This document shows, piece by piece, positions 1-383 of a DNA stretch of 383 nt (positions are counted from its first letter, which is position 1; each line of letters opens with the position of its first letter). Origin of the DNA: Escherichia coli (GTDB lineage: Bacteria; Pseudomonadota; Gammaproteobacteria; Enterobacterales; Enterobacteriaceae); NCBI RefSeq assembly GCF_003334335.1, contig NZ_QOWQ01000200.1; one strand, written 5' to 3'. The translations under genes and the position numbers were made by a program. The notes below the pieces were generated by a model that was not told where the DNA came from, did no database searches, and worked only from the letters and a program-made list of their open reading frames with translations.

Positions 1-383
1 TGTGCCAGCGCCTGGCGTGCCGGTGGCGGCAGAATCAGCGACTGCATGGCATCACGCTTTTCCTCAATCCGGTCAAAAACCCCCACCACCTCGTAAGCCC
101 CTTCAATAACTTTCTCCACCACATTTCCCCGGTGCGGAACACGCACTTCCCCCAGAGACTGACCACAGACGCATCCGTTCTGACAGACGAACCTGAAGTA
201 ACCCGGCAGCATCTGGTAGCTGGAGGTACCGTCATGGGAGTTGAGCAGAATGATTTCAGGGACATGTTCTCCGTTTATCTCTCCGGCCCGCCGCAGACGC
301 AGCATATGTTTTGTGTATCCCCGGCGGCCCGGGTCGCGCACACGGGTCTGGCAGGCGAAGAATGGCTGAAAGCCTTCCCGCTG
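1..383 (-). CDS. Internal fragment of a DUF932-family (YfjQ-like) protein of unknown function; truncated at both window edges, with N-terminus beyond 383 and C-terminus beyond 1
   Basis: Seen in sequence: the minus-strand frame with codons starting at 383 (383-381, 380-378, ...) runs 127 codons to position 3 with no stop, while the other two minus-strand frames hit stops. The translation has normal globular-protein composition. Recognition from memory: motifs such as EGFQPFFACQ.RVRD, HMLRLRR, PEIILLNSHDG.SSYQM, GEVRVPH and VIEGAYEV.GVFD resemble E. coli YfjQ and its island paralogs. The frame is missing from the ORF track probably because it has no start or stop inside the window. Confidence 0.78.

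Follow-up and report, generated by a model that had tools for sequence, protein, structure and literature searches.

The probable place of a DUF932 (YfjQ/YafZ-family) gene fragment from Escherichia coli in the yee module of tRNA-associated islands

A DUF932 gene across the window

The window, by which we mean the whole 383-bp stretch of Escherichia coli DNA analyzed here, covers the central third of a DUF932 (YfjQ/YafZ-family) gene that is intact, kept by selection and carried on the minus strand. Frame 1 of this strand is open across all 383 bases for 127 codons, none of them a start or a stop, and stops are present in the other two minus-strand frames. The translation of the window matches Pfam DUF932 (PF06067) with an E value of 2e-35 over model positions 27-152 of 227, and the initial annotation, which had read the window as an internal yfjQ-like fragment running from right to left, is borne out by the open frame and this match. 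A weak, subthreshold similarity of the same translation to the TIGR03299 "phage/plasmid-like protein" model was also recorded, and the full-length protein from an identical copy matches PHROG 12094 (E value of 7.5e-130), a family that is labeled "unknown function". No Rfam family was found in the window at E values up to 1. The short plus-strand open reading frames of the window (35 and 42 aa) lie antisense to the conserved coding frame and were treated as chance occurrences.

The extent of the complete gene, like the flanks of the window in general, was inferred from 100%-identical copies, and six such genomes were opened. In these copies the gene is 819 bp long and encodes a protein of 272 aa (WP_001234732.1; Table 1). 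The coding sequence begins 168 nt (56 codons) beyond position 383, on the right-hand side where the start had been expected, with an ATG that is preceded at 7 nt by a ribosome-binding site, AAGGAG. The promoter that had been placed on the same side was not recovered in our consensus scan: we found no sigma-70-type match between the ATG and the hairpin with a T-run that stands 25-50 nt upstream of it in five loci (three islands and both K-12 paralogues). At the other end, the gene does continue to the left of position 1, but it does so for 88 codons and a stop instead of the 100 or more codons that had been estimated.

Table 1. Coordinates of the features discussed, given for the window or for the locus record named.
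Feature	Record	Position	Strand	Basis or remark
DUF932/YfjQ-family gene, internal part	window	1..383	-	codons 57-183 of 272; open frame and PF06067
DUF932 domain, conserved core (H82 to H140)	window	132..308	-	97-sequence alignment
ATG, extrapolated	window coordinates	549-551	-	identical copies
Stop codon, extrapolated	window coordinates	265-267 bases left of position 1	-	identical copies
Complete DUF932 gene (WP_001234732.1)	L001	19733-20551	-	100% identical to the window
Hairpin and T-run	L001	16070-16096	-	strong; between module blocks
Hairpin and T-run	L001	20600-20629	-	strong; between module blocks
Hairpin and T-run	L001	20910-20938	-	strong; between module blocks
Hairpin and T-run	L001	27009-27036	-	strong; between module blocks
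Stretch with the DUF905, IrmA and 838-aa genes missing	L002 (SMS-3-5)	20552-20700		compared with L001
Stretch compared with SMS-3-5	L001	20552-20884		
YfjP-like GTPase gene	L001	27349-28221	-	weak PADLOC matches
Tandem 181-bp repeats	L015 (NZ_CP025892.1)	12639-13096		about 942.6-943.1 kb of NZ_CP025892.1
DNA ligase locus	L016	8271-10202		phage-like metagenomic contig
DNA ligase locus	L018	8570-10426		phage-like metagenomic contig
DNA ligase locus	L021	4371-5255		phage-like metagenomic contig

The gene is maintained by selection. Pairwise comparisons among the island gene, the allele of another island, the K-12 paralogues and the plasmid homologues gave dN/dS values of 0.016-0.136 wherever dS was not saturated, which shows purifying selection on the DUF932 gene, and the reading frame is intact in all copies opened. 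The lowest of these values belongs to the two K-12 paralogues, yafZ and yfjQ (dN 0.012, dS 0.78, dN/dS 0.016), and we note that a protein conservation of this strength is unusual for genes that are annotated as remnants of cryptic prophages.

The yee module and the ends of the island

We put at roughly 85% the probability that the window, judged by its identity and genomic context and leaving its function aside, is the DUF932 gene of the yee module in a tRNA island. The module that had been predicted from the window lies beside the identical copy in six of the six genomes opened, with antirestriction, RadC-like and CbeA/CbtA genes present in each case and a YfjP-like GTPase gene in all but LH50-c, where an IS66 element is found in the place the GTPase would occupy. 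In none of these genomes is the gene a lone fragment or bordered by core genes only. In these genomes, the DUF932 gene heads a series of ten genes in one direction, which continues downstream with an ArdB/KlcA-type antirestriction gene, a RadC-like JAB gene, DUF987, usually a gene for a 227-aa hypothetical protein, CbeA, CbtA, DUF5983, DUF957 and DUF4942. The neighbor families were checked independently of their RefSeq names; the antirestriction protein matches PF03230 (E value of 3e-37), the RadC-like protein matches TIGR00608 with 149 bits against a cutoff of 134, and the CbeA antitoxin and CbtA toxin match the profiles PF06154 and PF06755, respectively. This ten-gene block is the published "yee module"; the names "flu" and "yee" were given to modules of pheV islands, and high recombination of these modules has been reported (PMC11537424).

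Upstream of the DUF932 gene there are, optionally, genes for DUF905, IrmA and an 838-aa protein; farther on come an Ag43/Cah autotransporter gene with the IS102/IsrC sRNA and, after it, the YfjP-like GTPase gene. The GTPase gene had been expected near the DUF932 gene and is indeed present, but the Ag43 "flu" block, of 3.5-6.8 kb, separates the two. In SMS-3-5, the DUF905, IrmA and 838-aa genes are missing between Ag43 and DUF932; what remains of the DUF905 coding sequence in this genome is its last ∼45 nt, together with the hairpin, which points to a deletion and not to a different ancestral arrangement. The GTPase itself gave weak PADLOC matches to LeoBC (E value of 6e-9) and LeoA (E value of 8e-5), which are dynamin-like GTPases of a candidate defense system. 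In the protein databases, several entries (P0019, P0020, P0023 of 473 aa, P0025, P0043, P0029 and P0060) have DUF932 fused to Ag43 C-terminal domains, to RadC or to an antirestriction domain; most of them are singletons, and they look like frameshift or gene-calling artifacts across adjacent genes of the module.

Strong structures of a hairpin followed by a T-run also stand between the blocks of the module (Table 1), and the one upstream of DUF932 may be an attenuator or a read-through control point. From the start of DUF932 to the end of DUF957 we found no comparable hairpin, which suggests that the genes from DUF932 through DUF957 form a predicted nine-gene transcription unit headed by DUF932.

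The yee block is the tRNA-proximal end of large genomic islands that lie at the 3′ end of tRNA-Ser and carry variable cargo. A tRNA-Ser(GGA) gene is located 4.7 kb from the 3′ end of the DUF932 gene in five of the six identical-copy genomes, three times as serX, beside ghrA, and twice as serW, beside infA, and the sixth copy lies beside setC. The island in SMS-3-5 could be followed from end to end. There, the 14-bp core at the 3′ end of the tRNA, CCCCCTCACCGCCA, occurs exactly twice in 84 kb, at a distance of 41.6 kb, and the sequence after the distal core continues as the downstream flank of serW in K-12, in which the site is empty. A tyrosine integrase gene is found just inside the distal repeat, next to clpA. 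Strain 503025 has an integrase that is 96.8% identical to that of SMS-3-5 and the same 14-bp core, ∼97 kb from serX; the core occurs once at the tRNA and three times beside the integrase gene. In both islands that were traced end to end, the integrase gene lies at the end opposite the module, ∼36 to 91 kb from the DUF932 gene. The integrase is 34% identical to IntA of K-12 and scores 184 bits with the NCBIfam integrase-domain model, below the cutoff of 434 bits.

A tRNA or tmRNA integration site with an adjoining integrase had been proposed for these flanks. Both elements were found; the site, though, is tRNA-Ser (serW or serX, and in one case a position beside setC) and not ssrA, and the integrase sits at the far end of the island. 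Annotation of 10-20 kb on either side, which had been suggested as the way to look for them, reveals the tRNA and the module but misses the integrase at its greater distance. By analogy with related islands, the integrase would recombine the 14-bp core CCCCCTCACCGCCA at the 3′ end of the tRNA, leading to integration and excision of the island. For those relatives, it has been reported that OI-43 and OI-48 of E. coli O157:H7 are flanked by a perfect 14-bp repeat, TGGCGGTGAGGGGG, which corresponds to the last 14 bp of serW/serX, that the Shigella SRL pathogenicity island has the identical repeat and that the integrases are near-identical; excision of OI-43 and OI-48 was measured, and excision and integration of SRL-PAI were cited (PMC3064760).

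In strain 503025, the cargo between the two ends includes fecIRABCDE and virK/capU/lpxM as well as a gene for aspartate racemase that neighbors one for an anaerobic C4-dicarboxylate transporter; the SMS-3-5 island has glycosyltransferase genes and a type I restriction-modification subunit gene, and the island of strain EC-107 has ter genes. The ∼97-kb serX island is bordered, immediately beyond its integrase end, by a 181-bp unit repeated in tandem 2.5 times (98% matches; Table 1). Each copy begins with the 14-bp tRNA-Ser core, which is how the core comes to be present three times, and two of the copies score just above the gathering threshold of the Rfam RtT family (RF00391). The serW island end in SMS-3-5 is without these 181-bp repeats.

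Relation to known islands and distribution

The structure described above is already known; it is that of an SRL-PAI/OI-43/OI-48/CP4-6-type island with a yee module. The Shigella flexneri 2a island SRL-PAI and the E. coli O157:H7 islands OI-43/OI-48 use the same serX/serW sites and the same 14-bp repeat as the islands examined here. In SRL-PAI, orf46-56 encode a YfjP/YeeP GTPase, Ag43, YfjQ, YfjX/KlcA, YeeS, YeeT, YeeU, YeeV, YeeW, L0009 and L0010, which is the order found beside the identical copies. The likeness extends to part of the cargo, in that SRL-PAI and strain 503025 both have fec and the aspartate racemase gene next to the anaerobic C4-dicarboxylate transporter gene, and OI-43/48 and strain EC-107 both have ter genes. 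The present islands differ from SRL-PAI and OI-43/48 in that their cargo varies by strain and that one identical copy stands beside setC and not at tRNA-Ser. The SRL orf48 protein is represented in AFDB (Q9AL47) by a 189-aa form that is 94% identical and is not the allele of the window.

The two K-12 islands with DUF932 paralogues differ in how closely they resemble the present ones. CP4-6 (thrW ... yafZ ... intF) has the same layout, in which the tRNA is followed by toxin-antitoxin, DUF987, RadC-like, antirestriction, DUF905, DUF932 and GTPase genes, then by cargo and, at the far end, by the integrase gene; its YafZ is 74% identical to the query DUF932 protein. CP4-6 differs in its tRNA, thrW, in IntF, which has no real similarity to the island integrase, in the GTPase gene directly upstream of yafZ with no Ag43 block, and in the absence of DUF5983, DUF957 and DUF4942. 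CP4-57 (ssrA-intA ... yfjP-yfjQ ... yfjX-yfjY-ypjJ-yfjZ-ypjF) contains the same gene families, and its YfjQ is 73% identical to the query. In CP4-57, however, the integrase gene adjoins the ssrA site and the module lies at the distal end, and ∼6.4 kb of other genes separate yfjQ from yfjX, whereas in the present islands the DUF932 and antirestriction genes are adjacent and the module abuts the tRNA. The layout of the present islands is therefore that of CP4-6 and not that of CP4-57. The initial annotation had named CP4-57 as the type, which holds for the gene content but not for an ssrA site with an adjacent integrase. Taken as a whole, its prediction of the flanks is supported but already known; the result confirms a textbook-level regularity of E. 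coli and Shigella islands and as such adds annotation and no new biology.

By megablast, 4468 of the 5426 complete E. coli genomes searched contain a match to the window, and the median number of matching places in a genome is three. Among the 12,597 matches, 12,590 are chromosomal and 7 are on plasmids, and 159 records match the window at 99% or more. The 5.4-kb block from DUF4942 to DUF932 is covered to at least 80% in one place in 3566 of the 5426 genomes. We note that the copy beside setC (NZ_CP100500.1) combines an identical window with different alleles for nearly every neighboring module protein. This mixture of alleles, together with the different insertion site, fits recombination or gene conversion between the paralogous modules, of which a genome has ∼3, and it means that an identical window does not fix the locus. 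The identical 383-bp stretch could also lie in a decayed or rearranged copy.

Candidate roles of the DUF932 protein

The DUF932 protein has a set of residues that would be compatible with an enzyme. In an alignment of 97 sequences at 36-74% identity to the query, H82, R85, R87, E99, N104, H106, G108, G117, C123, N125, G126 and H140 (full-length numbering) are invariant or near-invariant, and P29, C123, N125, H140 and G230 are invariant across the 97 homologues, the query included. In the AF2 model (pLDDT 93), the conserved residues lie on or between consecutive β strands, which suggests that the His/Cys/Asn/Glu/Arg set is a putative catalytic or metal site. Neither the single protein nor a profile of the 97 sequences had a significant match among the solved structures in the PDB, and a Foldseek search of the model against the PDB gave a best E value of 0.15; against AFDB50, only DUF932/DUF945 proteins were returned. 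PADLOC gave no match for the DUF932 protein or for seven other proteins of the module. We found no functional study of DUF932, yfjQ, yafZ, yubP, orf273 or UPF0380 in the literature.

The closest homologue outside the islands is a gene in the leading region of the F plasmid, at 62% identity over 268 aa. A tblastn search placed full-length homologues of ∼62% identity (61-63%) on at least 5000 plasmids, 4434 of which are predicted to be conjugative. Among cluster representatives, the number of homologues found was 5395. In pAA, pKp11-42 and F, the homologue is located between hok/psiA and an SLT gene next to oriT/traM, so that it is two genes from oriT; the order in the F leading region is ssb, DUF905, the ParB-like YfjB/HerB, psiB, psiA, hok, the DUF932 gene, the SLT gene and oriT. 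Recent papers describe leading regions as anti-defense and establishment modules that are expressed on entry, and zygotic induction from ssDNA promoters has been documented for leading-region genes such as psiB and yfjB. The DUF932 gene is not named in the main text of these papers. That DUF932 is shared with the oriT-proximal end of F-like leading regions is the less familiar point of the present analysis.

These observations lead us to favor, tentatively, the idea that DUF932 is an enzyme-like factor that acts early after entry of a mobile element, in establishment or in evasion of defense. We consider this the most likely function, although with less than even confidence. The initial annotation had offered such a role as a hypothesis, to which the leading-region setting of the plasmid homologues now lends circumstantial support. 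It draws on three features: the closest non-island homologue is two genes from oriT in the F leading region, an antirestriction gene is adjacent in the islands, and the invariant His, Cys, Asn, Glu and Arg residues cluster on neighboring β strands. DUF932 is among the most widespread uncharacterized genes of enterobacterial mobile DNA, and the plasmids that carry it, at least 5000 in number, are mostly conjugative IncF plasmids that spread antibiotic resistance. Were it an establishment or anti-defense factor, it would be a target for blocking the spread of plasmids and islands, and it would explain how islands that have no transfer genes move between strains.

A more far-reaching version, which we hold to be doubtful, is that the yee module is a chromosomal counterpart of the plasmid leading region and that DUF932 is an early establishment or anti-defense enzyme with a fold unlike any solved structure. 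If it were true, nonconjugative islands (SRL-PAI, OI-43/48 and CP4-6-like islands) would spread as ssDNA hitchhiking on conjugation, and the module would be the first part to enter and to be expressed. Within the module, as within the leading region, all genes run in the same direction. By blastp and tblastn, the F leading region and the island module share only DUF932 (62% identity), DUF905 (43%) and the PF03230 antirestriction protein (28%). The island module is without ssb, psiB, psiA, the ParB-like gene and hok, and it has an integrase and an att site in place of a transfer origin. Searches of ∼160 kb of island DNA (L001-L004) for similarity to the F oriT and for the F nic motif gave only chance-level blastn matches (E value of 0.05 or more). 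Since the islands have no F-type oriT, ssb, psiB, psiA or ParB-like gene, the analogy with a leading region is a partial one.

An early role competes first with a role in the service of the resident host or element, for example, in phage defense or exclusion or in the regulation of neighbors such as Ag43. We likewise regard this as doubtful. In its favor, the island genes are kept in most E. coli genomes, and in Variovorax populations, start-codon and missense mutations in the DUF932 gene of an integrated plasmid rose above 50-70% after exposure to phage (preprint). Those mutations, however, were selected as loss-of-function changes, which a phage dependency factor fits as well as a defense gene does, and the protein has no PADLOC match. 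In plasmid-cured E. coli Nissle, a yfjQ-like gene did shift its expression along with Ag43c, but this co-regulation comes from one transcriptome, and in F-like plasmids the gene stands where entry functions typically do, two genes from oriT.

We think it unlikely that DUF932 is instead an enzyme for the processing or repair of the element's own DNA, working for example on nicks, on ends or on the conversion of ssDNA to dsDNA, and is not directed at host defenses. The invariant His/Cys/Asn/Glu/Arg set would suit such an enzyme as well, and a RadC-like protein is its neighbor in the islands. Further, among phage-like metagenomic contigs with distant DUF932 homologues (38-43% identity), three of the four independent contexts have a gene for an NAD- or ATP-dependent DNA ligase 0.5-4 kb downstream (Table 1). 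This link is absent, though, from the annotated phages GAP32 and immuto, from F plasmids and from the islands, and the sample in which it was seen is very small; we therefore dropped the ligase association as a general rule. No nuclease, ligase or polymerase fold was detected in the protein.

The remaining alternatives concern the nature of the locus. It seems quite improbable that the gene and its neighbors are the leftover of a defective P4-like prophage ("cryptic prophage CP4") with no present function. The name has its grounds, in that the K-12 paralogues lie in regions annotated as the cryptic prophages CP4-6 and CP4-57, genes for a P4-type integrase as well as AlpA-like HTH and DUF3987/YfjI genes are found in the islands, and the protein matches PHROG 12094. 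The dN/dS values given above speak against decay, however, as do the frames that are intact in thousands of genomes, and virion or lysis genes were not seen in the island stretches examined. Moreover, of 50,697 phage records only 27 contain a homologue, as against the at least 5000 plasmids; those phages are mostly jumbo phages of ∼350 kb, in which the homologues lie in runs of small co-directional open reading frames. An origin of the window in the leading region of a conjugative plasmid, from an F-type DUF932 gene beside oriT instead of a chromosomal island, is highly improbable and was rejected on identity grounds, since, for all the thousands of IncF plasmids with a full-length homologue, the plasmid copies are ∼61-63% identical in protein and the chromosomal ones 100% identical in DNA, and the 7 plasmid matches to the window stand against 12,597 in all. 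The only near-identical (98%) "plasmid" match of the DUF932 protein, PLSDB record NZ_CP141089.1, has a length of 4.94 Mb and is evidently a chromosome filed as a plasmid.
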